DNA from: an uncultured delta proteobacterium
GTDB lineage: Bacteria > Desulfobacterota > Syntrophia > Syntrophales > UBA2185
Assembly (NCBI GenBank): GCA_963705275.1
Contig: OY970063.1
Location: 1,026,515 to 1,090,514, forward strand
Reading direction: 5' to 3'
DNA: 64,000 nucleotides
Part shown: piece by piece, positions 38,327 through 54,482 of the stretch
Numbering within the stretch: position 1 is the first letter of the stretch
How the letters are laid out: each line of letters starts with the position of its first letter
The notes under the pieces: generated by a model
Seen by the model: the letters and a program-made list of their open reading frames with translations, nothing else
Database searches by the model: none
Told to the model about the DNA's origin: nothing
Translations under genes and position numbers: made by a program

Positions 38327-39151
38327 ATGTGGGAATATACTGACAAGGTCAAGGAGCACTTCCTCAATCCACGCAACGTCGGAGAAGTTGAGAACCCAGA
38401 TGGCATAGCCGAAGTCGGTTCCATTGCCTGCGGAGACGCCCTCAAACTTTCCTTCAAATTAGACGAGAACAAGAGGATCAAGGACATCAAGTTCAAGACC
38501 TTTGGCTGCGCCAGCGCGATCGCGACATCATCCGCATTGACAGAGATGGTCAAAGGGATGACCCTCGATGAAGCCATGAAGGTAACAAATCAGGACATTG
38601 CGGCTTATCTCGGAGGTCTGCCCCAAGAGAAAATGCACTGTTCTGTCATGGGAAAGCAGGCCATGGAGAAGGCTATTGAAAATTATAGGGGCGGCCCGCC
38701 GGCAGAGCCTGCGGCACAGATTATCTGTGAGTGCTTCGGCGTGACGGAACGCGAAATCGAGCAGGCTGTGAGAGAAAACAATCTCTCCACTGTCGAAGAG
38801 GTAACGAACTACACCAAAGCCGGCGGCGGCTGCGGGGGCTGTCATGACGCCATCAAGCAGATCATCGAGAGAGTACGGGCCGAAGCTGCGCCCGCAGCCA
38901 GACCGAAGCTCTCCAACATCCAGAAGATCAAGATGATCGAGGAAACTATCGATCGCGAAATCCGGCCATCCCTGAAGAAGGACGGCGGCGACATCGAACT
39001 CGTCGATGTCATCGGCAACCGCGTCCTTGTTGCCACAAGAGGAACCTGTGCAACCTGTAAGGCCGCCGATATCACATTGAAACATTTCGTTGAATTAAAA
39101 CTCCGGGATTTCGTATCGCCGGAGCTTGTTATTGAAGAGGTGACCACATGA
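38327..39151 (+). CDS. nifU: Fe-S cluster scaffold NifU (U + Bfd-like + Nfu domains)
   Basis: ACGD, TFGCASA, KMHCS; ICEC...GGCGGC; DGGD...GTCATC. Confidence 0.94.
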   Translation: MWEYTDKVKEHFLNPRNVGEVENPDGIAEVGSIACGDALKLSFKLDENKRIKDIKFKTFGCASAIATSSALTEMVKGMTLDEAMKVTNQDIAAYLGGLPQEKMHCSVMGKQAMEKAIENYRGGPPAEPAAQIICECFGVTEREIEQAVRENNLSTVEEVTNYTKAGGGCGGCHDAIKQIIERVRAEAAPAARPKLSNIQKIKMIEETIDREIRPSLKKDGGDIELVDVIGNRVLVATRGTCATCKAADITLKHFVELKLRDFVSPELVIEEVTT

Positions 39152-40329
39152 AGACTATCTATCTCGACAACAATGCGACAACACAGGTCGCAGAAGAGGT
39201 TCTCGATGCCATGCTGCCCTATTTCCGCGACCTTTACGGGAACCCGTCCAGCATGCATACCTTTGGAGGTCAAGTCGGACGGAGCATCCGTGAGGCCCGC
39301 GAACAAGCCGCATCCCTGATCGGCGCCCAACCGGAGGAGATTATCTTCACGAGCTGCGGTACGGAAAGCGATAATGCAGCCATCCGTTCAGCCCTGACTG
39401 CCCATCCCGACAGGCGCCACATCTTGACAAGCCGGGTCGAGCATCCCGCAGTCAAGTCCCTATGCGCCCATCTGTCAAGGCAGGGCTATCGCATAACAGA
39501 GCTCCCCGTTGACAAGGACGGCATCCTGGACATGGCCCAGTACGAAAGGGCTCTCACACCGGATACGGCCATCGTCAGCCTCATGTGGGCGAACAACGAA
39601 ACAGGGGTGCTCTTTCCCGTGGAAAAGGCATCAGAGCTTGCAACGGAAAGAGGCATTCTGTTTCATACAGACGCCGTCCAGGCAGTGGGAAAGATTCCCA
39701 TAAACATGAGGGCCAATGCCATTGATATGCTCTCCATATCCGGTCACAAGCTTCATGCGCCAAAGGGCATCGGAATCCTTTATGTCCGCAAAGGAACGAA
39801 ATTCTCTCCTTTTCTTATAGGCGGGCATCAGGAAAAGGAACGACGGGGCGGTACGGAAAACACGCCCAGCATTATCGGACTGGGGAAGGCCTGCGAATTG
39901 GCGGCCGGCAATATGCAAAAAGAGAACAAGATGGTGTTGCTCCTCCGGGACAAACTGGAGGCTGAGATTATCTCACGTATTCCCAACAGCCGGGTGAATG
40001 GAAACCGCCTGCACAGACTCCCCAACACGACGAATATCAGCTTTGAGTTCGTCGAGGGCGAGGCCATCCTCCTCCTTATGGACGATTACGGAATTTGCGC
40101 GTCGTCCGGTTCCGCCTGCACTTCAGGGTCATTGCAGCCCTCCCATGTGCTCCGCGCCATGGGCGTCCCATTCACTATGGCCCATGGCTCCATCAGGTTT
40201 AGCCTCTCAATCTATAACACGGAAGAAGATATAGACTTCGTGATAGAAAAGCTGCCTTCCATAATCGAACGGTTGCGCAGTATGTCGCCGTATTGGAATG
40301 TAGGCGACCAGGTATGCTCTGTCCAGTAA
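39148..40329 (+). CDS. nifS: Cysteine desulfurase NifS
   Basis: YLDNNATT, HTDAVQ, SGHK, SSGSACTS; ATGA overlap with nifU. Confidence 0.94.
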   Translation: MKTIYLDNNATTQVAEEVLDAMLPYFRDLYGNPSSMHTFGGQVGRSIREAREQAASLIGAQPEEIIFTSCGTESDNAAIRSALTAHPDRRHILTSRVEHPAVKSLCAHLSRQGYRITELPVDKDGILDMAQYERALTPDTAIVSLMWANNETGVLFPVEKASELATERGILFHTDAVQAVGKIPINMRANAIDMLSISGHKLHAPKGIGILYVRKGTKFSPFLIGGHQEKERRGGTENTPSIIGLGKACELAAGNMQKENKMVLLLRDKLEAEIISRIPNSRVNGNRLHRLPNTTNISFEFVEGEAILLLMDDYGICASSGSACTSGSLQPSHVLRAMGVPFTMAHGSIRFSLSIYNTEEDIDFVIEKLPSIIERLRSMSPYWNVGDQVCSVQ

Positions 40330-40345
40330 AGGAGGAAAAATCACC

Positions 40346-41308
40346 ATGGAGGATGACAAGGCTAAAACGGATCAGTGCAAAGCTAATATTGATATTACCC
40401 GGACATTTCGCGATGAAATACCGGCTATCGTTGAAGAGCTTGCGTCGTCCTGCGCCCGCCACGACTGTTTTGACCACGTGGGCCCGGAACCCATTCCTTC
40501 TCGGGAGGCCATCATCGACACCGTGCACATGGCGTGCCGCATTCTCTACCCCGGCTACTTTATCCGCACACGCGTAGATCAGGTCAATGTGGGATACTAT
40601 TTCGGCCAGGAATTGACCGCTCTTTTTGAAGCCCTTGCCGAACAGATTATGCTCGCCATACGGCATGACTGCATCCGGCACGATCAGCCCTGCACTCACT
40701 GCGAAGAGCGTGGCCAGCAGGCTGCCATCGGCTTTCTGCGCAGTATGCCGCAATTGCGTGTTTTGCTTGCCACGGATATTAAAGCGGCCTATGAAGGAGA
40801 TCCAGCCGCCAAGAGTTTCGATGAAATCATATTCAGTTATCCGGGGCTTTTCGCAATCACAGTATATCGCATCGCTCATCTGCTGCACCACAACGACATT
40901 CCCCTTATCCCGCGCATCATGACTGAATACGCCCATAGCAGAACGGGCATAGATATACATCCCGGGGCCGATATCGGAGAAAGTTTCTTTATCGATCACG
41001 GTACGGGTGTCGTAATCGGGGAGACGACCACCATCGGCAAACGTGTCAGAATATATCAGGGAGTAACTTTGGGCGCCCTGTCGCTCGGCCGTGACGAACT
41101 GGAAAGTCTGCGAAACAAGAAGCGTCATCCAACGATTGAGGATGATGCTATCATCTATTCAAATGCAACCGTGCTGGGCGGGAAGACCGTCATCGGAGCC
41201 CGTTCGGTAATCGGCGGAAACGTCTGGATTACTGACTCGGTGCCGCCGGATACGGAGATATTCCTGAAAAAGCAGGATCTCGTGCTGAGAGAAAAGACTG
41301 CCAAATAG
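40346..41308 (+). CDS. cysE: Serine O-acetyltransferase (long form)
   Basis: GDPAA, GIDIHPGA.IG, FIDHGTGVVIGET, YQGVTLG, KRHPT. Confidence 0.9.
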   Translation: MEDDKAKTDQCKANIDITRTFRDEIPAIVEELASSCARHDCFDHVGPEPIPSREAIIDTVHMACRILYPGYFIRTRVDQVNVGYYFGQELTALFEALAEQIMLAIRHDCIRHDQPCTHCEERGQQAAIGFLRSMPQLRVLLATDIKAAYEGDPAAKSFDEIIFSYPGLFAITVYRIAHLLHHNDIPLIPRIMTEYAHSRTGIDIHPGADIGESFFIDHGTGVVIGETTTIGKRVRIYQGVTLGALSLGRDELESLRNKKRHPTIEDDAIIYSNATVLGGKTVIGARSVIGGNVWITDSVPPDTEIFLKKQDLVLREKTAK

Positions 41309-41525
41309 GCCGCTTGCTTAAGCCGACTGATATAATTGCGGTTCCTCCACATCTGCCAAACCCTTAGGTAGCTTATGCCTACCATTACTCTTCCATTTAA
41401 TACTCATTGCTTAGCACTGCCAAACGCATTAGTGTGATTGTGGTAAATTGCCCTGACATATGGGGCACTGTAGCGAGTGATCCCTTCTAACAGCAGAAGG
41501 CTATTCGTTATCGCACGAAGGAAAT

Positions 41526-43208
41526 GTGCCGCGAGGATTGCCGGTGGAAAAAAGACTGCATAAATCTCAAATGAATGTGACTTCCGGATATAAGGCGGAT
41601 AACCCTGCGAGCAACTATGTAAAGACCAGGCCGCGCCGGCGTCACGGGAGCCGTCCTGCGAAGGTGATAAGGAACATAAAGCGCTTTGAGATCCTGAAGA
41701 AGGCGGGGAAGACGACAGTACTCCTTGTGGCCCCGGAGACGGGCAGGCTGCCGGAAGATATGGGAAGCCTGGCGAGATATATATCCGGCAAATCAGGAGG
41801 CCTGGGAGAGGTGGTCTCCGCGCTATCTGAGGGGCTCAGGGCAAGGGGAATCAACTGCCACCTGGCGACGCTTAATCTTAAAAGGCGCTTTCAAGAGGAG
41901 AGCGGCATGGATGAACATGCATGGCGTCAGGTCAGATACAAGGTAGACCCTGACAAGATCCATCTGGTAAGCTCATCTATCTATGCAAACCTCCCCAGCG
42001 CATATTCGGGGAATCCACTTTCCAATGCCGCTGAATTTCAGAAGGAACTGGTAAATAATACCATCAAGACAGTGCGGGCAAGAAGCGGTGGGATGCTTAT
42101 CGTGCATAGCCACGACTGGATGGCAGGCGGTGTTGTCACGGCGTATGCGAAATCGAGGGACTGCCCCGTGCTGCATACGGTGCACAACGTCCATACAGGC
42201 CACATCCCTTTGGATATGCTTTTCGGAGTAGATATTGATAGCCTCGCATGGAATATCTACTTCTCCGAGTATAACGGGAGGACATGTATCGACTCCCAGG
42301 CTACAGCCATTAAGAGCGCCACCATGGTAAATTTCGTGGGGGAAAAGTTTCTCAGGGAAATCATCGAAGATTATTTCCTGGACAGGTCATTCATCCCCCC
42401 GAGCGTGAGGCAGGAGGTCAAGGCAAAGTACAATCACGGTGCGGCATTCTGCATCATCAATGCGCCATCCCCCAGGATGTATCCGGAGCGCTGCGAGCAC
42501 CTCGCGAGGAAGTACAATCCCGATGACGATGTTCTGGCAGCAAAGAGGGAGAACCTGGTGGAGTTTCAGAAGAGGACGGGTCTTATGACAAATCCGGATG
42601 CGATTCTTCTCTACTGGCCGTCGAGACTGGACGAAATGCAGAAGGGATGTGAGCTTCTCGAAGACATTGCCCTTAGATTTGTCATAGAAAACGCCGACGC
42701 CCAGATTGCCGTTGTCGGTAACGGCGTTGAAGGTGATCGGAAGCACGAGGAGATTATGGGAAGGATCGCTTGCGCCTCGGGCGGGAAGATAACATACCAG
42801 CGCTTCAGCGAACCTCTCTCCATGCTCGGCTACGCCGCGGCAAGCGACGTCTTCGGCGCGTCCCTTTATGAGCCCTGCGGTCAGATAGACCAGATAGGCA
42901 ACCTCTTCGGCGCCACAGCGACGAACCGCGACACCGGCGGTTATCATGACAAGATAAAAGAACTGCAATTAAGGTGCGAGGGCGCATCTTGCGATACCGG
43001 AAACGGATTCCTCTTCTGCAATTATGATCCCGGCGGCTTATGGCACGGACTCACGAGGAGTATACAGTTTCACAGGAACCCGCCGGAGCAAAGAGAAGAG
43101 CAGATGAAGAGGATCATGAGGGAGGCGAGGGAAAGATACGGCTTAGACACCATGATCGATGAATACGTGAAGGCTTACGAGAGGCTCAACGGCAGGCCGC
43201 TTAACTGA
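41526..43208 (+). CDS. Glycogen/starch-synthase-like GT-B glycosyltransferase (divergent; start uncertain)
   Basis: KSGGLGEV, HSHDW, TVHN, PSRL..QKG, SLYEPCG, DTGG. Confidence 0.8.
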   Translation: MPRGLPVEKRLHKSQMNVTSGYKADNPASNYVKTRPRRRHGSRPAKVIRNIKRFEILKKAGKTTVLLVAPETGRLPEDMGSLARYISGKSGGLGEVVSALSEGLRARGINCHLATLNLKRRFQEESGMDEHAWRQVRYKVDPDKIHLVSSSIYANLPSAYSGNPLSNAAEFQKELVNNTIKTVRARSGGMLIVHSHDWMAGGVVTAYAKSRDCPVLHTVHNVHTGHIPLDMLFGVDIDSLAWNIYFSEYNGRTCIDSQATAIKSATMVNFVGEKFLREIIEDYFLDRSFIPPSVRQEVKAKYNHGAAFCIINAPSPRMYPERCEHLARKYNPDDDVLAAKRENLVEFQKRTGLMTNPDAILLYWPSRLDEMQKGCELLEDIALRFVIENADAQIAVVGNGVEGDRKHEEIMGRIACASGGKITYQRFSEPLSMLGYAAASDVFGASLYEPCGQIDQIGNLFGATATNRDTGGYHDKIKELQLRCEGASCDTGNGFLFCNYDPGGLWHGLTRSIQFHRNPPEQREEQMKRIMREARERYGLDTMIDEYVKAYERLNGRPLN

Positions 43209-43231
43209 ATGCACATCAAGAGGACAGGACT

Positions 43232-44227
43232 ATGGAAAATGCATTAAAGATACTGCTTGTCGAGGATAATAGAACGGACGCTGTATTGATTGAAGAAATG
43301 ATCCATCAGCCGGACGCAGATGGTTCTTACGACATCAGTTACGAATTAATACATAAGGAACTGCTCCGTGACGCCTTGAAATATTTGGCCGAAAATACGG
43401 TTGATGTAATTCTCCTGGACCTGTCTCTTCCCGACAGCAAAGGTCTTGAGACGATAAGAAAAATGGGCGAGAGGGAAAAGAATGCGCCTATTATCGTCCT
43501 CACAGGTCTCGATAATGAAGCCACTGCCATACGAGCGCTGCAACACAGCGTTCAGGACTATCTAAATAAGAACAAGACGGACAGCATCCTGCTTCATCGT
43601 TCCATAAAATATTCCATGGAACGCTTCAACAATATAAGAGAGAAAGAAAGACTAATAACGGAACTGAAGGAGGCGCTCGATAATATAAAGACGCTGCGAG
43701 GGCTGCTCCCCATCTGCGCCGGTTGCAAGAATATACGCGATGATGACGGATACTGGATACAGGTTGAATCCTATCTCACGAGCCACTCCGATCTCAATTT
43801 TACTCACAGCATCTGCCCTGATTGCGTGAAGAAGCTGTATCCCGAATTTACCAGGAATAAGAAGGTGGATGTAGAAAAACGCCAGCACCCGAGAAAGAAC
43901 GTCTCTTTTCCCGCTCTGGTAAGCGGATGCGGATCGGAGGATAAGACGCTGTTGCAGAACGGATTAGTCGTAGATATTTCTCAGGGGGGATTGCAGATAT
44001 TAATCCCGAGCACCTATGAGTGCAAGAAGGAAGGCGACGGGGAAGCTTCCAGGATAACCATTACCTTCGCACTGCCCGGTAGTAAGAAACCCATTACTAT
44101 AGAGTGTGTGCCCCAAAGTGTATTTCGGTCTGATCAAGAAACCAAGATCGGAGCTTCTTTTGTCGACACTGACATTGAGACGTATCAAGCCATTCAGAAC
44201 TACCTGATGAACTCAATATCGGCATAA
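43232..44227 (+). CDS. Response regulator with Cys-rich central domain and C-terminal PilZ
   Basis: REC (LLVED, LLDLSLPD); LLPICAGCKNIRDDDGYW...THSICPDC; RQHPR...DISQGG. Confidence 0.85.
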   Translation: MENALKILLVEDNRTDAVLIEEMIHQPDADGSYDISYELIHKELLRDALKYLAENTVDVILLDLSLPDSKGLETIRKMGEREKNAPIIVLTGLDNEATAIRALQHSVQDYLNKNKTDSILLHRSIKYSMERFNNIREKERLITELKEALDNIKTLRGLLPICAGCKNIRDDDGYWIQVESYLTSHSDLNFTHSICPDCVKKLYPEFTRNKKVDVEKRQHPRKNVSFPALVSGCGSEDKTLLQNGLVVDISQGGLQILIPSTYECKKEGDGEASRITITFALPGSKKPITIECVPQSVFRSDQETKIGASFVDTDIETYQAIQNYLMNSISA

Positions 44228-44285
44228 ATTTCATCGCCCGACATACCCTTTTGTTCTGCGGAAAAGGCTCTCAAGCACGGGTTCT

Positions 44286-45660
44286 ATGGCAATATTCAAA
44301 GACCGGATCATCGACGTTACCACGGGAAATATCTGGACCGGCATCTGGAAACTTTCCTGGCCCATGCTTGTAATGATGATCCTTGGCTTCCTGGTCGGCT
44401 TTACCGATGTATATGTTGCCGGTCTTATCAGCCCGAATGTCCAGGCGGCAGTCGGTTTCATAACTCAGATATATTTCCTTGTCATTATTGTTGCAAACGC
44501 TATCAGCATAGGCTCACTGGCAGTGATTTCCAGGGCCATCGGCGCCGGAGACGAGGGCAGGGCCATTGATGCCGCAAAGCAATCTCTCTTCCTCGGCCTG
44601 TTGATTTCCATTGCCTTCACTGCGGTTTGTCTCATATTTTATCGCGGCATCATTTCAGGAGCCGGATTCCCGCCGGAGATTACTGACATTGCCGAAAATT
44701 TCCTGCTGATTTTTGCCTTCGCTCTGGGACCTAATTACCTCCTCGTCATCTCGAACACCATTTTCCGTGCAGGTGCCGAGGTGAAAAAACCACTCGTGAC
44801 AATGTTTGTCATCAGTGTGGTGAATATTGCCCTGGATTTCCTGCTCGTTTTCGGCATTCACCCTTTTCCAAAACTCGGCTATGCAGGAATCGCCTATTCG
44901 ACGGCCATCTCGACGCTCTTAGGAACCATGATTAACCTAACGTTCCTGGGGCTCAGCGACAGATGGCGACCTGTCTATTCTAATTTCGGGATCGTATCTT
45001 CTGAAATGGTCAAGACCCATTCTCAATGTTGGATGGCCTGCGGGATTTCTCCAGGTCGCCTGGAATATGGCGAGCATACTTATGTTTAATGTTCTGGGAA
45101 GACTGAAAGAGGCAAGTATCACCGCCCTCGCGTCTATTGCCAACGGGCTCCGGATTGAGGCGATAATCTTCCTCCCCGCCTTTGCGCTCAACATGGCCGC
45201 GTCGGTCATTGTGGGCCAGAACCTGGGCGCCGGCGATCCGGAAAGGGCGGAAAAGATGGGCTGGAAGCTGGCCGGTTTGGGGATAGCGATTACCAGCATC
45301 ATGGCTGTTATCATCTTCATATGGGCGGAGAGCTTCGCCTCCACCCTGACTTCGGAACCCGCAGTCCTTGCCGAAACGGCGCGGTATCTCAGGTTCAATA
45401 TGGTTTCCGAGCCCTTCCTTGCCTTGAGTACGGTGATGGGAGGCGGTCTTCAGGGCGCGGGTGATACGAGGGGGACAATGTGGGTCATCATTATTTCCAT
45501 GTGGTTTATCCGGCTCCCCCTTGCCGTGTTCTTTGCGCTCCATGCGGGGTTGGGCGCCCCCGGCGTCTGGACGGCCATGGTAATTTCCATGGCCTGCCAG
45601 GGACTCATGATGGCCTGGTGGTTTCACCAAGGGAAATGGAAGAGGCTGGAATTGAAATAA
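44286..45660 (+). CDS. MATE efflux transporter, frameshifted by an extra C at 45016-45018
   Basis: Both MATE halves are present. Removing one C gives ...MVKTILNVGWPAGFLQVAWNMAS..., joining the two ORFs. Confidence 0.85.
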
Positions 45661-45721
45661 ATGTAAAATCCGGAACGTCGGACTCCGTGATTTAAGAACC
45701 GGTGAAAGGAGACAAAGATAA

Positions 45722-46940
45722 ATGCTGCACCTCTACAATTCCATGGGAAAACGATTGGAGGTTTTTCGTCCCGTTAACTCCAAGGTCGTGAACATATTCA
45801 CCTGCGGCCCTTCCGTCTACCAGAGGGCGCATATCGGCAATTTCAGGACATTCTTATTCGAAGACGTCTTGGTCAAATATCTTGAATATTCCGGTTACAA
45901 GGTCAAACGGGGCATGAATTTCACCGATATCGAAGACAAGGCTGTAGCGGAAGCGGAAAAAAAACATACGACGGTGAAGCGCCTGACAGAGGAGAATATT
46001 GCATCATTCCTCGATGAAATGGCCTTGCTCAAGATCAAGAAACCTGATTATCTTCCGCGCGCTTCCCGTTCGGTCGGCGAGGCGGTAAAAATCATCGAGG
46101 GTCTCGCCGCGCGCGGCACGGCATACTGGCATCGTGGTGACGTATATTTTGATCCGTTAAAATTCAAGGGATTCGGAAAAATTTACGGCCTTGATATGAC
46201 GCGGTGGCCGAAGGCGAAGAGACGACTTCAGCAAAGACACCTATCCGGGCATGCGCTGGAATCTCGGCGATTTCATACTCTGGCACGGCTGCAGGGAAGG
46301 TGAAAGGGACTGCTGGAAGACATCAATTGGAGCGGGCAGGCCCGCCTGGAACATACAGGATGCAAGCATGGTAAACCGGTATTTCCATGAGACCCTCTCC
46401 ATCTACTGCGGAGGGATCGATAATCTGATCCGCCACCACGACTATACGCGCGCCGTCCTGGAATCTGTGAGACCCTATGCCATGGCGCGATACTGGCTCC
46501 ACTGTCAGCATCTATTTGTAAACGGAAAGAAGATGTCCAAGAGCAAGGGGAATATCTACTATACGGATACATTACTTGCCGATGGGTATAGCCCCGCCGA
46601 AATAAGGTTCTTCCTGATCTCAAATCACTACCGGAAGAGGATAAACTATACGGAGAAAAATATGCGCCGTGCCAAAGACAAGCTTCATGAGCTGAAAGGC
46701 CTGACGCACGGTATTACAGAAAGAGCCGCGGGGAAGCCCCGGCGGGGTTCCCGGAAAGCCCAGAGCCTCCGGGATGTCTTTATCCGGCACATGGATAATG
46801 ATTTGCGGCTCGGTGAGGCTATCGATGCCGTGCAGTTTCTTCTATCGGGGATCAGACCGGAGGCCCTGAAACCGGACGAGGCTGCGGATATCCTCGCCTC
46901 GCTCAAGGATATGGACAAGGTATTAAATGTCTTGTTCTAG
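45722..46940 (+). CDS. Divergent, C-terminally truncated cysteinyl-tRNA synthetase paralog (frameshift near 46223-46226)
   Basis: TCGPSVY..AHIGN, DFILW, GRPAW, KMSKSKGN. Removing one base joins the ORFs (RRFSKDTYPGMRWN) to give ~405 aa. Confidence 0.8.
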
Positions 46941-47020
46941 AATAAGAGCAGCAAGACTGAGAAAGACTCCGGTGCTCTCAGGATGCAAAGGCAAAATAAA
47001 AAATGCAAGAGGAGAATGTC

Positions 47021-47827
47021 ATGAAGAAATTATTCGGAATGCTCGCCGTCTTTGTATTGATTCTGATAGTCGCGGGTATCGCACAGGCGGCAACGAAGAT
47101 CGCGGGGAAGGACGTGGCCTATAGCGCCCAGGGTGTCGTGATGAAAGGCTACCTTGCATATGACGAGAATATCAAGGGCAGACGCCCGGGAGTGTTGGTG
47201 GTCCACGAATGGTGGGGGCTCAATGACTACGCCCGCAAGCGGGCCCGCATGCTGGCAGGACTTGGTTATACGGCCCTCGCCGTGGACATGTACGGTGAAG
47301 GCAAGATGGCCAAGCACCCTGATGATGCGGGAAAATTTTCATCAGAGCTCATGAAGAATTTTGACGTGGGAAAGGCGCGCTTTGTCGCAGCGATGGATTT
47401 CCTTAAAGGGCAGCCCTCCGTCGACCCAGCGCAGATCGCCGCCATCGGCTATTGCTTCGGCGGCGGCATTGTGCTCAACATGGCGCGGCAGGGGGTTGAT
47501 CTTGCGGGTGTTGCAAGCTTTCATGGAAGTTTGACGGCAGTGAAACCCGCCCAGCCCGGCGCGGTGAAGGCAAGTATACTGGTCCTTCACGGCGAGGATG
47601 ACAAGTTTATAACGGGAGCGCAGATTGAGGCTTTCAAGAACGAGATGAAAGCCGCGGGCGCCGACTACAAGTTTATCTCCTACCCGGGCGCAGTTCACAG
47701 CTTCACCAACCCTCAGGCTGATGAATTAGGGAAAAAGTATAATATCCCGATCGCGTACAACCGCGACGCAGACAAGAAATCATGGGAAGAACTGAAGAAA
47801 TTTCTGCGCACCATTTTCAGAAGATAG
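47021..47827 (+). CDS. Exported dienelactone hydrolase family protein
   Basis: Signal peptide, HEWWGLN, GYCFGG, FHG, HSFTNP. Confidence 0.9.
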   Translation: MKKLFGMLAVFVLILIVAGIAQAATKIAGKDVAYSAQGVVMKGYLAYDENIKGRRPGVLVVHEWWGLNDYARKRARMLAGLGYTALAVDMYGEGKMAKHPDDAGKFSSELMKNFDVGKARFVAAMDFLKGQPSVDPAQIAAIGYCFGGGIVLNMARQGVDLAGVASFHGSLTAVKPAQPGAVKASILVLHGEDDKFITGAQIEAFKNEMKAAGADYKFISYPGAVHSFTNPQADELGKKYNIPIAYNRDADKKSWEELKKFLRTIFRR

Positions 47828-47837
47828 CATAGTGCAC

Positions 47838-48968
47838 CTATCTCCTTATGCCTCCGCCTCCGCCAGCGGACGGATGCATAGTCCCTCCCTCGTGAGCGGG
47901 CGGGCCGAATACCCTCCCTTCACTCGGTGGGGGGCCGGGCATTCCAGCGGGTGCACGGAACCTTTCTCCCTCACGTACGCGAGGGCCCGGCGCCCTTCCC
48001 TCTTGGTGAGCGGGGCTCATCATCCTGTGCTCGCCGACAGGAGGACTAACCACCGTGCCACCCGCAGGTGGGCCCGCTGGCCGGACGCCACCGCTTGGCA
48101 CGCCCGTCACACTGCTGCCGCGCGGGGGTGGGCTAACTACTCTTGTGCCGGGAGGCATTTGTTCGCGGGGACCGTGAAAAATTCTTGTTTCACCGCGAGG
48201 AACACCCGTCGAGATAAAACCCTTCCTGCTCTTTACGCCGATCCCGGCAAATGTCCTCCCGTTGAATCTCGCCCCCGGATCGATCCGAAAGACACGGTGC
48301 TTCCTCACATCGTTGAAGTGATTTGAGACAAAAATCACTCTTCCATTTGAGACAATGGTCCTATGGAAATCATGGAGGACGAAGAATCCCGGAAACCAAA
48401 AACCGGAGCACCAGAAGGGATAAGGAATCCACGTATAAAGGTAATAAAAATCAGGAGGCGGATAGTAGTATGTGACTACAGGTGGACCCTGGTCAGAGTA
48501 ATAACCGTTTATATCCTGCGGATTCGGATAGTCCTGGGAACCCGATGACTCCGCTCCGTAAGTGGCGCCGCCCGTGTAAGGGCTGATCGGCAAGCCGGAG
48601 GCGGCGGCAACATCGTAGAACCTCTTTAAGGCCTCATCCTTGCCGAGAGCCAGCTTATTGGCATCCGCGGCATCGCCTACCGCTTTCTGCAGCTCACCTA
48701 TGATATCGGGAGTCACGGGATAATCGGCAATCCACCCGTTCCGGGGCGTGATGCCGGCTTCTCCAAGCCGGCTTTCCGCTTCAACCTCTTCGTCTGTCGT
48801 CCCTATGCCCAAAGCGGAGGCAAGCCTGACAGCGAAGTCCCCCTCGCGGACGAGTTGCTGCTCTATCGGTGGCGGGCTCCCTGATTGGGCCCATGCGACT
48901 ACCGGAATCAAAAACAAGAAAAGACCCGCGATGAACACTATAATATCTCTTGGGGATAGCTTTTTCAT
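47838..48968 (-). CDS. Exported hypothetical protein with aromatic/Pro-rich middle and Gly/Pro-rich disordered tail
   Basis: Signal peptide (AWA), YYYPPPDFYYLY, low-complexity tail; AAGGAG RBS. Confidence 0.7.
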   Translation of the reverse strand: MKKLSPRDIIVFIAGLFLFLIPVVAWAQSGSPPPIEQQLVREGDFAVRLASALGIGTTDEEVEAESRLGEAGITPRNGWIADYPVTPDIIGELQKAVGDAADANKLALGKDEALKRFYDVAAASGLPISPYTGGATYGAESSGSQDYPNPQDINGYYSDQGPPVVTYYYPPPDFYYLYTWIPYPFWCSGFWFPGFFVLHDFHRTIVSNGRVIFVSNHFNDVRKHRVFRIDPGARFNGRTFAGIGVKSRKGFISTGVPRGETRIFHGPREQMPPGTRVVSPPPRGSSVTGVPSGGVRPAGPPAGGTVVSPPVGEHRMMSPAHQEGRAPGPRVREGERFRAPAGMPGPPPSEGRVFGPPAHEGGTMHPSAGGGGGIRR

Positions 48969-49236
48969 GCGGCAGTTCTCCTTTCTACTCCGATAACGAT
49001 TTCTCTAGTGAAAGGATATTACATATTATCGCAGGATGCCATAGGCAGGATTACTCATTATGGACTGCGAAATGTCTTATTGCAAAACAAGAAAAAGGAT
49101 GAGGGGGTAAAAGAGAAAAGGAGCGTAGTGCAAACATATATGTCTTCTCACGCGGCGGGACCAAAGTCCTGCACTACGACTCTTTGCGGCGCATGATATT
49201 GCTTCTCCTCGCCCGCAATGAGAATCACGATAGAGC

Positions 49237-49677
49237 TCAGAACGGCAGTTTATTGAGCAGAACCCAGTAAAATCCTATGTCGGCTACGGCCTGTGCGAAG
49301 TTATTAAACTCAACGGGTTTCACGATATAACTGTTCACCCCGAGTTCATAACTGTCAATCCGGTCCTTCTGCTCATTGGAAGAAGTGAGAACCACGACAG
49401 GCAGAGTCTTCGTCCGCTCGTCAGATCTGATTCTGCGCAAGACCTCAATGCCGTCTACCTTCGGAAGCTTAAGGTCAAGGAGAATCACCTTCGGACGGAC
49501 ACATATATTCCTGCCCGCAAACTGGCCCGTACAAAATATGTAATCGAGCGCCTCCTCACCGTCCCGCAATACCTTGACACGGTTGGCAAGTTTATGCACC
49601 TTAAGGGCATCAATGGTCAGCTCCACATCGTCAGGGTTATCCTCTATGAGCAAGACATCGACAATATTATCAGCCAA
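49237..49677 (-). CDS. Single-domain response regulator (Rcp1-like)
   Basis: TTG start with AGGAG RBS; [26 protein letters not shown]; overlaps the kinase stop. Confidence 0.9.
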
Positions 49678-52303
49678 ATTTCTTCTCCTTTCCGGCAATG
49701 GTAAAGTAAAATGTTGCTCCCCCGTCCACTTTGCCTTCAGCCCAAACCCGGCCGCCATGGCGATGAATAATACGCTGGACAATAGCAAGCCCGACACCAG
49801 TCCCTTCAAACTCGTCCGGACGATGCAACCGCTCGAAGACACCGAAGAGCTTGTCAGAATATCTCATGTCGAAGCCGGCCCCGTTATCCTTCACGTAATA
49901 AGTTATCTCGCTTCCCTCGTTGCGACTGCCTATTTGAATCACAGCCGGTTTTCTGTCTCTCGTAAACTTGACGGCATTGGAAAGCAGATTGACAACGACC
50001 TGTCTGATGAGAGATGCATCGGCGAAGACGGGTATCATATTGACGATTGTGAAGTCAAGCTCCCGGTTCGGGTTTAGTTCCTTGATCTCTCCCCATACAT
50101 CGCGTGCCACTGCTTCCATATTGACCCTCGACATATGCATTTCCTTGCGGCTCAATCTCGAAAACGAAAGGAGGTCATCGATCAACTGTCCCATCTGCTG
50201 CGCGTTTCTGCTTATAGCATGCAGCTTTCTTACGCCTTCTTCTTCAAGCTTATCTTCGAAGTCACGGATGAGCCTCAAAGAAAAGCCGTCGATCGCCCTG
50301 AGAGGCGCCCTGAGGTCGTGGGAGACCGAGTAGCTGAAGCCCTCCAGTTCCTTGTTCGCCGCTTCCAGCTGAACCGTCCTCTCCTTGAGTTCCATCTCTG
50401 CCGCCCTGCGCTCGGTGATGTCCAGTCCGTATATCCGGATGCGCTCAGCTTGTCTTACATAATTTATCGATTGCAGGTACCATCTCCCGGAAACGGTCAC
50501 TTCCCGCACGCTGCATTCCGTTTCTGACTCACGGCAGGCGCTCACTAGCGCCTCCCAGTCGGCAAGCCACGGATGCGCAAGCCCGCTCTTTCGGATGCCA
50601 GGGAACAACATCTCAGCGGCTGGGTTTACGAACTGTATATTGCCCGCCATATCAGTCTCCACTATAGGATTCGGGTTCAGCCTGGGGAACGTTGCCAGGC
50701 GCTCCATTTCCGCTTCCGCCTGCTTGCGCTCGGTAATATCCCTCACGAGGCCGACCATAGATACGACTTCACCCATTTCGTTTCGCCTGGGCATTCCCTG
50801 CGCCCATATCCAGCGGACGACCCCGTCAGTCGTTCTTATGCGGCATTCAAAATTCCATTCCGTGCCTGTGGATATCGCCTGCCCGAACTTCTCGTCCACC
50901 TCCTTGCGGTCGGAAGTTAGCACGTGTTCGAGGAACATCTGATATGACCATTCGGGAAGAAGCGTCTTATAGCCGAAGATCTGATCATGGCGGAGCGACC
51001 GCCAGGCCTTTCCTGTTCTCGTGTCGAGTCCCCATATGCCGAGCTCGCCTGCTTCGAGCGCATGCGTGAGGCGCTCTTCACTTTCTTTAAGCTCTGCCGT
51101 TCTTTCCTCAACCCGATCTTCCAATTCATCGTATGATCTCTGCAATGCCTTCTGCGCTGCTCTGAGCGCCGTTACGTCCCGGGCTGCCGCGAATACGCCC
51201 TGTACTTCTCCCTTATCGTCCTTAAAGGTTGCGGCATTGTAGAGAACCTCTGTTATCTCGCCTGACGCATGGCGGATGGCGAGGGGATAGTCTTTAACAA
51301 AACCCTGTGAGAAGACCTTGCTGTAGCCCTCCCGAGCCTTGCCGGGTTCTGTAAAGTAATCGGAAAAATCACTGCCGATGAGCTTCTCGCGGGAGACGCC
51401 GGTGACATCCTCCGCAGCCTTGTTTACGTCCATCACCTTGCCTTCGGCGCTGATCGTAACCAGGGGGTCCAGGCTCACTTCGATGAGGCTCCGTGTATAA
51501 AGGCCGGCGATACGGAGCGCTTCCCGGGCCTTTTCCTTTTCCTCTATACCCGCCCGCAGACTTGCATTGGCATCCTTCAGTCTGCCGGCCATTTCATTGA
51601 AGGAAAGGGACAAGGACGCAATCTCATCCCGGCCTCTTACGGGCACCCTGTATTCGAGGTCGCCCCGGGCAATTATCTCCGTTCCGTTCTTGAGGGTCTT
51701 GATGGATGCCGTTATATTCCCACTCAAAAAGTATGATATGGCGCCTGCGATCACTATCATGATGAGGAGCGTAACCGTGATAAACCAGATAGACCATGTC
51801 AGCGTTTTTTGAATGGAGGCGTCGCTCTCACGGGAGAGAGAGTATGCATCACCGGCCATGATCTGGGACCTGGCCATGAGCTGCGTCACGTTCCTCTCGT
51901 TGTTTTCATCTAGAAGGGCCCGCATGGAGGCGGAGGCGTGTTTCTTTCTCTCGTCGTTCTCGACGAGCTTCCCAAAGAACAGGACCGTATCCTCGTGGTT
52001 CTTCATGATCCTCGTGAGGATAATGCCCTCTTTTTCACCGGCGAATCTTGCGCCTCTGATGAGGTCCTCAAGCGAGGCATGCTTCATTTCCCATTGCTGA
52101 CGGGCGCGTTTGCCGGGTTTCATCAGGTAGTCGTAGGTGATAGTGTTCATATCGGAGACACCTATGACGAGCTGGTCGGCGAGCGCCCCCGTCGCCACGG
52201 AGTCTGCCACTTTATCTCTCGCGATATTGAGGACAAGCCCTGTAATTACCAGGGAACAGACGAGAAGGAGGACATTGATCAGGAGTTTGGTTCTTATGGA
52301 CAT
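49670..52303 (-). CDS. Membrane sensor histidine kinase (periplasmic helical domain, HAMP, 3 PAS, HisKA/HATPase)
   Basis: 2 TM, DEIASL..SFNEM, PAS/PAC repeats, [32 protein letters not shown]. Confidence 0.95.
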
Positions 52304-52310
52304 GATGACC

Positions 52311-53324
52311 TCAATGGATGATTCTCACTGCCTCCGGTTTTATCCTCTCGAGACTTTCCCAATGGATGAACCGAAGGTAATTGGGCATCTCCTTTGCCCC
52401 GGTGAGTCTGCGGCGCATGGCCCACTTTGCCTCGTCCTCCATCAGGATAACGAGGTCCTGGTCGAGCCTTACCCGGAGGTCACACCGCCTCCATACTGAC
52501 TGTAATAAAGCAGGATCGTAGCCCAACCGCGCTGCAATCAAGTTCTGGGCGTCCGTTGCGTGCTCCGACCAATACTTTTCCGCCTCCAAGAGGGCTTCGA
52601 GCATGCGTTTGACCGCACGCGGACGTTCTTTGATGAACTCCTCTTTGGCCACCAGCATTAACTGATAATTCTGGCCGCTTTGTCCAGGCCAGGTCACTGC
52701 ATTGGGACCAAGGCTGTCTCTGATTTTTCCGGCATATGGCTCCCATGTAATGGCGGCCTCCACAGCGCCGGAGGAGATAGCCTCCGGCATTTCGTAAGGC
52801 TTCAGGTCCACGAGCTTGACACTTCCAATAGCAATGCCATGCAGGGAGAGGAACGTCTCCAGGAAGAAATCTCCCACGGTGTTGCGCGTGAATCCGATCC
52901 TCCTGCCTTTTAAATGGGCGGGTTCAGTAATCCCGCGATCTTTCCTCGCGCTGATTTCCACAGTGTCACCACGGAAGATAGATGCAAGTATCCTGAGATC
53001 GTCCCGCTGGAAACTCTTGGTTACGAATACGAAGGCCGATACCGCTGTTACATCGACCCTGTTCTTCAGAAGATCGTCCGTCGCCTTTGGTCCATCCGGG
53101 AAATCTATGATCGTCACATCAAGTCCGTGCTCTTTGAACATGCCCCTGGCATCTGCAATGTACGCAAGAGATGAGCTTTCTATGACCACTAGACCCAGGG
53201 TGATCTTTTCGACGGCGCCGGTAAATTTTGCCCCGGTCCCTTTCTGGCAGTGCAGGCAGAAAAGGGCAATCGCCGAAAGGGCGATTAAGATGACGGCTCT
53301 TTTTGTCTGTCTTGATTTGAGCAT
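52311..53324 (-). CDS. SsuA/NMT1-type substrate-binding protein, copy 1 (intact)
   Basis: N-terminal signal with Cys, YIA..GMFKEHGLDV, LKGRRIG, TWEPY, MEDEAKW, PNYLRFI. Confidence 0.88.
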   Translation of the reverse strand: MLKSRQTKRAVILIALSAIALFCLHCQKGTGAKFTGAVEKITLGLVVIESSSLAYIADARGMFKEHGLDVTIIDFPDGPKATDDLLKNRVDVTAVSAFVFVTKSFQRDDLRILASIFRGDTVEISARKDRGITEPAHLKGRRIGFTRNTVGDFFLETFLSLHGIAIGSVKLVDLKPYEMPEAISSGAVEAAITWEPYAGKIRDSLGPNAVTWPGQSGQNYQLMLVAKEEFIKERPRAVKRMLEALLEAEKYWSEHATDAQNLIAARLGYDPALLQSVWRRCDLRVRLDQDLVILMEDEAKWAMRRRLTGAKEMPNYLRFIHWESLERIKPEAVRIIH

Positions 53325-53472: not shown

Positions 53473-54482
53473 CTAATGAATCAATCCGATGGTGTCCGGC
53501 CTTATCTTTTCCAGGGGCCGCCAATCGATATACCTGATGTAGTTCGGTATGTCCGGGCGATCTCCCTTCTGCTTCAGAAGCCATTTTGCCTCGTCCTCCA
53601 TCAGGGTCACGAGGTCCTGATCGAGTCTCACCCGGAAATCAACCCGTTTCCATAATGACTGTAATGAGGCGGGATCGTAGCCCCGCCGCGAGGCGACCAG
53701 GTTCTGTGCATCCGCAGTGCGCTCCGTACAATATTTTTCCGCCTCCAACAGGGCCTTGAGGAGGCGTTCAACTGCAAGCGGTCGTTCTTTGATGAATTCC
53801 TCTTTGGCCATCAGCACGAATTGATAGCGCTGGCCGCTTTGCCCCGGCCAGATCAAAGCATTGGCACCAAGGCTGTCTCTGATCTTTTTAGCATAAGGCT
53901 CCCAGGCAATAACGGCGTCCACGGAGCCGGAGGAAATAGCATCCGTGATCTCAGAAGGCCGGAGGTCCACGAGCCTGGCACCTCCTGAGGCGATGCCATG
54001 CAGGGAAAGGAACGTCGCCATGAAGAAATCCAGAACTGTACCTTTCGTCAGTCCGATCCGCCTGCCTCTTAAGTGGCGGGTTTAGTGATCCCGCGGTCTT
54101 TCCTCGCAATCACTTCAAATGTGTCTCCACGGAAGATAGACCCGAATATCCTGAGATCATTCACGTGGAGACTCCTGGTGACGAATATGAAGTCCGCCAC
54201 CACTGCCACATCGACCCTGTTTTTCAGAAGGTCGTCTGAAGCCTTTACCCCATCGGGGAAATCTATGATCGTCACATCGAGTCCATGCTCTTTGAACATG
54301 CCTTTGGCGTCGGCGATGTACACAAGGGACGAGCTTTCTATAGCAACCACACCCAGGGTGATCTTTTCGACGGGCCCGGCATATTTCCCTCCGCTCCCCT
54401 TCTGGCAGCAGATGAAAAAAAGGGCCGTCGCGGAAAATACGATTAAGATCAATGCTGCTTTTATTTTTCTGGATTCAGGCAT
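53473..54482 (-). CDS. SsuA/NMT1-type substrate-binding protein, copy 2 (1-nt deletion near 54075)
   Basis: Close paralog of copy 1; adding one C (KPAHLRGRRIG) joins the 137-aa and 182-aa ORFs. Confidence 0.85.

Follow-up and report, generated by a model that had tools for sequence, protein, structure and literature searches.

A predicted family of CysRS-derived ligases with a remodelled amino-acid pocket in uncultured anaerobes

A split CysRS-like gene in a Syntrophales genome

A gene for a ligase resembling cysteinyl-tRNA synthetase (CysRS) lies at positions 45722-46940 of a 64,000-nucleotide stretch of DNA (the window) from an uncultured bacterium of the order Syntrophales (assembly GCA_963705275.1, contig OY970063.1, positions 1,026,515 to 1,090,514 of the forward strand). 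Two open reading frames (ORFs) on the + strand, 45722-46303 and 46251-46940, are the two halves of this one gene. Pfam PF01406 matches the first with its profile positions 2-148 (E 2e-35) and the second with positions 164-300 (E 3e-34), and the CysRS model TIGR00435 scores the two halves at 146.8 and 148.5 bits, respectively. When the frame is repaired by one four-letter step at the shift site, taken as X, the gene encodes 405 amino acids, and 386 of the 405 are identical in an intact homologue, P0003. The parts of the gene are as follows.

45706-45711, + strand: Shine-Dalgarno-like AAGGAG, 10 nucleotides 5' of the ATG, as read from the sequence.
45722-46224, + strand: CysRS-like ligase, N-terminal part, residues 1 to ~168, with Cys28 (45803-45805), HIGN (45830-45841) and a TDIEDK motif.
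46225, + strand: single extra base relative to close relatives, giving a +1 frame shift; located by blastn against the related contig L032, short-read contigs and read-through.
46226-46940, + strand: CysRS-like ligase, C-terminal part, residues ~169-405 and stop, with WNIQD (46347-46361), RHHDYT (46431-46448), KMSKS (46530-46544) and the helical bundle.

The window ORFs contain the motifs AHIGNF, GRPAWNIQDASM, SIYCGGIDNLIRHHDYT and KMSKS. Where CysRS has GRPGWHIEC, as in the full-length representative P0134, the ligase reads GRPAWNIQD, and where CysRS has PHHENE it reads RHHDYT. The HIGN motif is ordinary, many full-length CysRS representatives carrying it too. A HMMER alignment of a homologue with E. 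coli CysRS (1li5) pairs C28 with C28, D213 with C209, H238 with H234 and T242 with E238; the zinc ligands of the E. coli enzyme are reportedly Cys28, Cys209, His234 and Glu238. The alignment spans residues 1-391 of the 461 in 1li5 and ends before the anticodon domain, so that the C-terminal end of the ligase corresponds to the start of this domain in CysRS. The original prediction, made from the letters of the window, had described HIGN and KMSKS motifs beside altered WHIEC and HHENE boxes, a repaired protein of ~405 residues, replacement of Cys209 by Asp and of Glu238 by Thr with Cys28 and His234 kept, and loss of the anticodon domain; the window ORFs, the read-through protein and the alignment to 1li5 agree with it on every one of these points.

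A conserved family with fixed changes in the pocket

A homologue search limited to proteins of 135-431 amino acids returned 3448 proteins at E <= 1e-10, and motifs were counted in the best 120 of these. The 120 share 56-97% identity, and 76 are exactly 405 residues long. Both W[NS][IV]QD and KMSKS are present in 119 of the 120 and RHHDY[TSN] in at least 116; CGPS.Y...H.GN is found in 108, the remaining 12 having no match to this N-terminal pattern. Fragments shorter than 380 residues account for 13 of the 120 and may include some of these 12. The pocket motifs extend further, to at least 12 of the first 60 matches among representatives at 50% identity, down to 42-49% identity. A metagenome scan yielded at least 593 relatives, of which 80, at 44-95% identity, were kept, and look-alike clusters of ~400 residues from Spirochaetota, Chloroflexota and archaea in the ESM Atlas are candidate relatives.

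Comparison of 110 family members with 10 forms that have a canonical zinc site revealed 17 positions fixed differently in the two sets. Ten of these surround the active site (family/canonical: F26/Y, H188/K, N210/H, Q212/E, D213/C, S226/D, Y228/H, R237/P, D240/E and Y241/N), and each of the ten is fixed in at least 93% of the 110 members. In E. coli numbering the family changes are H206N, E208Q, C209D, DIH to SIY, P233R, E236D, N237Y and E238T/S/N. Asp occupies position 213 in all 110 members, Cys28 and His234 are invariant, and the adenylation motifs HIGN, KMSKS, GG.D and T68/D69 are retained.

We compared the read-through window copy with L032 and obtained a ratio of non-synonymous to synonymous rates (dN/dS) of 0.078, from 15 non-synonymous and 48 synonymous differences. 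The ratio 3' of the shift is 0.067, and two intact orthologues compared with each other give ~0.10. Because the pocket substitutions are conserved family-wide and dN/dS is this low, the alignments support the view that the substitutions do not reflect decay.

In an 83-row tree, built without MshC and CysRS* sequences, the family forms one clade apart from CysRS (support of 99 in the Shimodaira-Hasegawa-like approximate likelihood ratio test, SH-aLRT). Its nearest neighbours are short forms that lack the anticodon domain and keep WHIEC and HHENE (P0140, then P0149, P0145 and P0147). P0003 scores 297.4 bits with TIGR00435 and family members 270-316, below the cut-off of 340; with the MshC model TIGR03447 the scores are 172.3 for P0003 and 164-189 for other members, below the cut-off of 485.1. 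By sequence, the family is a conserved, uncharacterised clade of predicted CysRS-derived class I ligases of ~405 residues.

On a long branch that joins this clade lies P0248, a representative of 430 residues that has lost both Cys28 (TSGPG) and KMSKS (RMTARC). Possibly a catalytically inactive side branch, it was kept out of the family description.

An accessory gene beside a canonical cysS

The host genome is a single contig of 2.92 Mb and is 99.3% complete. It carries a canonical cysS of 493 amino acids with GRPGWHIEC and PHHENE, which matches TIGR00435 at 560.9 bits; two distant metagenome-assembled genomes with the ligase paralogue likewise carry a canonical cysS (575.7 and 571.4 bits). 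Since this genome holds both a canonical cysS and a CysM-CysRS fusion, and the ligase scores below the cysS cut-off, the data support the conclusion that the ligase is not the housekeeping CysRS. The original prediction had held as much, and the second cysS that it anticipated is present in a complete genome. Its further expectations also held: the WNIQD/HHDY changes recur among the homologues and in the relatives at 42-49% identity, and the ligases branch separately from CysRS in the MshC-free tree.

Of 40 relatives from the same order, 14 carry the ligase, each with an intact copy. Among other genomes, a sample of 300 from its phylum gave 6 carriers, which belong to six different families, and a sample of 200 from the phylum of L031 (record titled Nitrospiraceae) gave 6 more, at 54-60% identity. 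It is thus a rare, patchy accessory gene, and this distribution is consistent with horizontal transfer.

ARAGORN detected one tRNA-Cys and one tRNA-Sec-like gene in the genome, and a search for SepRS in the genome gave a best match of 22.9 bits, so that this enzyme was not found. As a separate observation, ARAGORN found no tRNA-His or tRNA-Asn in the single contig.

The fusion mentioned above is a protein of 769 amino acids (G000:C1:2356806-2359115; L002:586-2895, + strand). A cysteine synthase of the CysM/CysK type occupies residues 8-298 (TIGR01136, 358 bits, passing the cut-off) and a full-length CysRS residues 306-767 (TIGR00435, ~396-398 bits). The motifs of the CysRS part are unusual, reading VRPSWHLECAA, DIHASGADVIFPHCENV and KMSRS. 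Open frames of 738-814 amino acids matching the fusion occur in 29 of the 40 relatives of the order, and P0136 and P0178 match it among the library representatives. We found no paper on a CysRS fused to cysteine synthase or CysK in the open-access literature or bioRxiv.

Predicted fold and surface charge

An AlphaFold2 model of P0003, computed from a 120-row alignment, has a predicted local distance difference test score (pLDDT) of 94.1 and a predicted template modelling score of 0.93. The pLDDT falls below 50 solely at residues 175-177 (the block 171-180 has a mean of 60), which sit in a family-specific basic loop of the connective peptide (CP) domain. The model contains every part of the CysRS fold between the Rossmann domain and the helical bundle, both included, and there the chain stops. 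Foldseek ranks the CysRS structures 8qhp, 1li5 and 1u0b first (template modelling (TM) scores of 0.86-0.89), then MshC (0.82-0.84), with MetRS far behind. In alignment with full-length CysRS there is nothing past the VLNVLF tail, and this end point is that of the short canonical forms.

The family is strongly basic, with a median isoelectric point of 9.52 and a net charge of +18 (n=110), as against 6.06 and -7 for 96 full-length CysRS. The window protein reaches +22, matched or exceeded by 2% of the 956 genome ORFs of 300-600 amino acids, and the canonical cysS of the same genome encodes a protein of -7. The short zinc-canonical forms are as basic as the ligase family. Such a charge fits binding to a polyanion, which could be RNA or the anionic membrane beside the efflux pump encoded next to the ligase.

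Genomic neighbourhood

Directly upstream of the ligase lies the following gene.

44286-45660, + strand: MATE-family efflux transporter, split by one extra base at 45016; Pfam MatE matches both halves.

Intact orthologues of this transporter match TIGR00797 at 241 bits and pass the model. The MATE gene adjoins the ligase in 13 of the 14 carriers among the 40 relatives and is present in one of the 26 non-carriers. MATE identities track those of the ligase, and the next best MATE match in the genome has 24% identity; judged by these sequence comparisons, the MATE gene next to the ligase is a specific orthologue.

For a wider count, 88 loci were collapsed at 75% identity into 49 groups, 33 of which had a usable upstream ORF. 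MATE occupies the -1 position on the same strand in 8 of the 33, with gaps of 8-24 nucleotides in the seven groups besides the window's own. A PrxQ-type peroxiredoxin is at -1 in 4 of the 33 (gaps of 11-19 nucleotides) and rubrerythrin in 2, and superoxide dismutase lies upstream of the ligase in L030. Across the 33 groups, MATE and the PrxQ-type peroxiredoxin are the sole recurrent neighbours. A 45-row family tree splits into two major clades. MATE-linked members are dispersed over the window's clade, and at least two changes are required to explain the link; given the starred branches of the tree, a single origin is possible. A CDF-type cation efflux gene and a CNNM/CorC gene each adjoin single family members.

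Close relatives share the order NifU, NifS, serine acetyltransferase, glycosyltransferase, response regulator/PilZ, MATE, ligase and dienelactone hydrolase, and this synteny reflects kinship alone. In the window, NifU, a NifS-type cysteine desulfurase, a 320-residue serine O-acetyltransferase-like gene (EpsC/CysE models) and then a 560-residue GlgA-like glycosyltransferase occupy positions 38327-41308 on the + strand, an arrangement seen in close relatives only.

The window has no tRNA gene, and 834 kb across 91 loci hold two tRNAs only, neither adjacent to the ligase. Window positions 40000-50000 gave no Rfam match (E <= 0.1) to a T-box, a riboswitch or any other RNA family, and seven distant loci (138 kb) gave none at gathering scores. 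Neither the ligase nor the MATE protein matched a defence system in PADLOC. Genes of the mshA, mshB and mshD families did not turn up in the neighbour scans, which included no search aimed at these families.

The frameshift is probably an assembly artefact

L032 is a metagenome contig of ~93% nucleotide identity to the window, and blastn shows that it lacks the extra bases. Over the ~21 kb aligned between the two, frame-breaking insertions or deletions occur at only two sites, both one-base insertions: 45016 in MATE, where the extra base is a C (CC to CCC), and 46225 in the ligase. We also consulted four public short-read runs (X1-X4), whose contigs come from relatives or near relatives and none from the source strain. 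Position 45016 is covered by contigs of X1 (98% identical) and X4, and the extra base is missing in both. Position 46225 is bridged by contigs of X2 and X4 only (94-95% identical), and here too the extra base is missing in both; X1, the closest run at 98-100% identity, has no cover at this site.

A genome-wide check started from 198 ORFs of at least 200 amino acids in a genome of the same genus, 119 of which have an orthologue here at 65% identity or more. Intact copies make up 96 of these 119 orthologues; frameshifts split 9, in-frame stops interrupt 7 and 7 are partial. The frameshift junctions are not concentrated in long homopolymers. The assembly seems error-prone, and because 16 of 119 compared genes are broken, a rate pointing to consensus errors in a free-living genome, and the orthologues of all 14 carriers are intact, we consider the frameshift in the ligase to be probably an artefact of assembly. 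A genuine pseudogene, which this strain would have lost along with the MATE partner, is the unlikely alternative. The placement of the sole two frame-breaking changes of ~21 kb in adjacent genes speaks for it, and the disrupted orthologues across the genome, the dN/dS of 0.078 without relaxation 3' of the shift, the X1 contig without the MATE insertion and the absence of either insertion from every run speak against it. Even if real, the frameshift is at most a very recent lesion, and the gene was under selection until very recently.

Proposed function and its alternatives

The retained and replaced residues suggest a mechanism in which the ligase would still make an aminoacyl-adenylate, and a remodelled Cys-Asp-His metal site, with one coordination position left open and a new Arg beside it, would select the amino acid. 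Without Glu238 the metal would have an open site, and the pocket appears to have lost three acidic residues and gained Arg237. Together these changes suggest that plain cysteine is not the substrate, and that a different amino acid, a cysteine analogue or a compound with an additional polar or anionic group is used. ThrRS, which reads a hydroxyl group through zinc, offers an analogy for such a site. The activated residue would then go to an acceptor whose recognition involves no tRNA anticodon; a small molecule or a component of the envelope is the most likely one, and the product might be handled by the MATE exporter in a stress or detoxification role.

We tentatively favour a non-tRNA acceptor, with export of the product by the MATE pump, over a tRNA or RNA acceptor. 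A broader proposal, which we regard as rather doubtful, is that the family adds a third functional class to the CysRS-derived enzymes, besides MshC and CysRS*. Its members would use a non-cysteine amino acid, possibly with an anionic or O/N-donor side chain, through the Cys-Asp-His metal site, join it to a non-tRNA acceptor and export the product through MATE, for stress or detoxification in uncultured anaerobes. Our estimates for the readings weighed in this section overlap and are not additive: the non-tRNA reading includes the MshC-like enzyme as one of its forms, and the tRNA reading includes the zinc-sparing enzyme.

Several points weigh against a new substrate and a non-tRNA acceptor. 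The invariance of Cys28 and His234 suggests that the metal site survives, and cysteine may still be the substrate. Loss of the anticodon domain would by itself be no proof of tRNA independence, because CysRS*, which lacks that domain, is proposed to charge tRNA. Outside the clade, the closest relatives are short, zinc-canonical CysRS forms, of which NCBI names two cysteine--tRNA ligase, and the basic charge would fit RNA binding. Nor is the genomic context strong: the peroxiredoxin link belongs to one subclade of the other major clade and has a single origin, either neighbour association may have arisen only once, and the ligase has no conserved biosynthetic partner. We therefore treat the context as suggestive.

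The possible, though less probable, alternative is an enzyme directed at tRNA or another RNA and using cysteine or a related amino acid: either an acceptor-stem synthetase like CysRS* or an RNA-modifying aminoacyl ligase, for which GluQRS/YadB is the model. The strong positive charge keeps this explanation in play, and the short zinc-canonical forms, two of them annotated as cysteine--tRNA ligase, are equally basic. The CP-domain loop that touches the acceptor end in CysRS is kept and, in the family, extended by a conserved run of basic residues; the model predicts with high confidence that the stem-contact fold and the helical bundle are retained, and CysRS* is a precedent for a CysRS without the anticodon domain. 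Yet no tRNA gene is linked to the ligase in the window or the 91 loci, the genome has one tRNA-Cys and one tRNA-Sec-like gene only, the amino-acid pocket has been rebuilt, the conserved partner is an efflux pump and not a translation factor, and the basic surface could serve membrane binding equally.

An MshC-like ligase, which would join cysteine to a sugar or amine to give a low-molecular-weight thiol for oxidative-stress defence in anaerobes, would retain the non-tRNA acceptor that we favour, but we consider it improbable. The architecture is that of MshC (~410 residues, no anticodon domain, TM scores of 0.82-0.84), and in some lineages oxidative-stress genes lie directly upstream (the PrxQ-type peroxiredoxin in 4 of 33 groups, rubrerythrin in 2, superoxide dismutase nearby in L030), such genes being scarce in the genome (8 AhpC/TSA and ~10 rubrerythrin matches). 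A serine acetyltransferase and a glycosyltransferase also lie a few genes upstream in close relatives, but this synteny is confined to them and the peroxiredoxin link has its single origin on the tree. Family members reach 164-189 bits with the MshC model, whose cut-off is 485; the residues at two of the four zinc-site positions of CysRS have been replaced, and there is no conserved deacetylase or MshA-type partner. The same two replacements, by harder or non-ligating residues, would suit a zinc-sparing back-up CysRS that resembles the CysS2 enzymes of Zur regulons and works with a different metal or without one. Zur-regulated CysRS paralogues are known in Cupriavidus, and the CDF-type and CNNM/CorC genes lie beside single family members. 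We nevertheless consider this explanation very improbable. According to Haas et al. (2009, PMC2770081) the Zur-linked paralogues keep their zinc-binding residues; the ligase family lacks the anticodon domain; Pfam neighbour scans turned up no COG0523, zinc-uptake or Zur-type neighbour, no Zur-box search being made; and discrimination of cysteine from serine would be hard without a thiophilic metal.

Comparison with known CysRS-derived systems

The family resembles canonical CysRS (1li5/1u0b; TIGR00435) in identity (~30%), in TM score (0.86-0.89), in overall fold (Rossmann domain to helical bundle) and in the equivalents of HIGN/KMSKS, Cys28, Thr68, Trp205 and His234. It differs from it in the missing anticodon domain, in C209D, E238T and about eight more fixed active-site changes, in scores below the TIGR00435 cut-off, in a charge of +18 as against -7, and in being accessory beside a true cysS. 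The short zinc-canonical forms (P0140, P0147 and P0149; two are NCBI-named cysteine--tRNA ligase, from DPANN archaea) match the family in length, in the VL.V.F tail where the chain ends and in basicity, and branch nearest to it in the tree; unlike it, they retain WHIEC and HHENE and score 352-393 bits with the cysS model, above its cut-off.

MshC (3c8z, 8hfm; TIGR03447), the cysteine:GlcN-Ins ligase of mycothiol synthesis, is likewise CysRS-derived, ~410 residues long and without an anticodon domain, and reviews describe it as tRNA-independent. The ligase family is nearer to CysRS by sequence, stays far below the MshC cut-off and occurs in other host phyla. CysRS*, known from some Desulfobacterales, is also a second CysRS copy without the anticodon domain in related anaerobes. 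Mukai et al. (2017, PMC5389517) place its gene 3' of selC*-selB*, give it a PTVS motif in CP1 and propose that it charges a tRNA. The ligase has no linked tRNA or selB, its pocket is rebuilt, and the PTVS motif is in none of the fetched proteins, so that the published CysRS* description sets it apart by context and motif. Zur-regulated CysS2 (Haas et al. 2009, PMC2770081; PMC10882993) is an extra CysRS beside the housekeeping copy, but it is reported to keep its zinc-binding residues, which are changed in the ligase family, and we saw no zinc-regulon context at the loci examined; retention of the zinc ligands makes the Zur-linked paralogues a different class.

As far as the accessible text of the reviews goes, the functions given for CysRS paralogues are MshC and CysRS* only. 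We found no published description of a CysRS-like family with these motifs in open-access papers and bioRxiv, supplements such as the CysRS* alignment aside. On the sequence evidence, the ligase probably carries out a joining reaction different from that of CysRS, and the automatic annotation of family proteins as cysteinyl-tRNA synthetase (the JGI name) is probably wrong. Truncated synthetase paralogues (MshC, GluQRS, HisZ and PoxA) have repeatedly been shown to run unexpected chemistry. Here a conserved clade under purifying selection, spread over at least two phyla of mostly uncultured anaerobes, shows one fixed pattern of replacement at the residues for cysteine specificity. Once found, the amino acid and acceptor of this clade would add a new reaction to the synthetase-like ligases, and study of the ligase could reveal an exported metabolite or stress response not yet known.

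Other features of the window

A segment of ~1.5 kb that is missing from the close relative L032 holds a second, split NMT1/THI5-like binding-protein gene (53473-54482, - strand), which adjoins an intact copy at 52311-53324.

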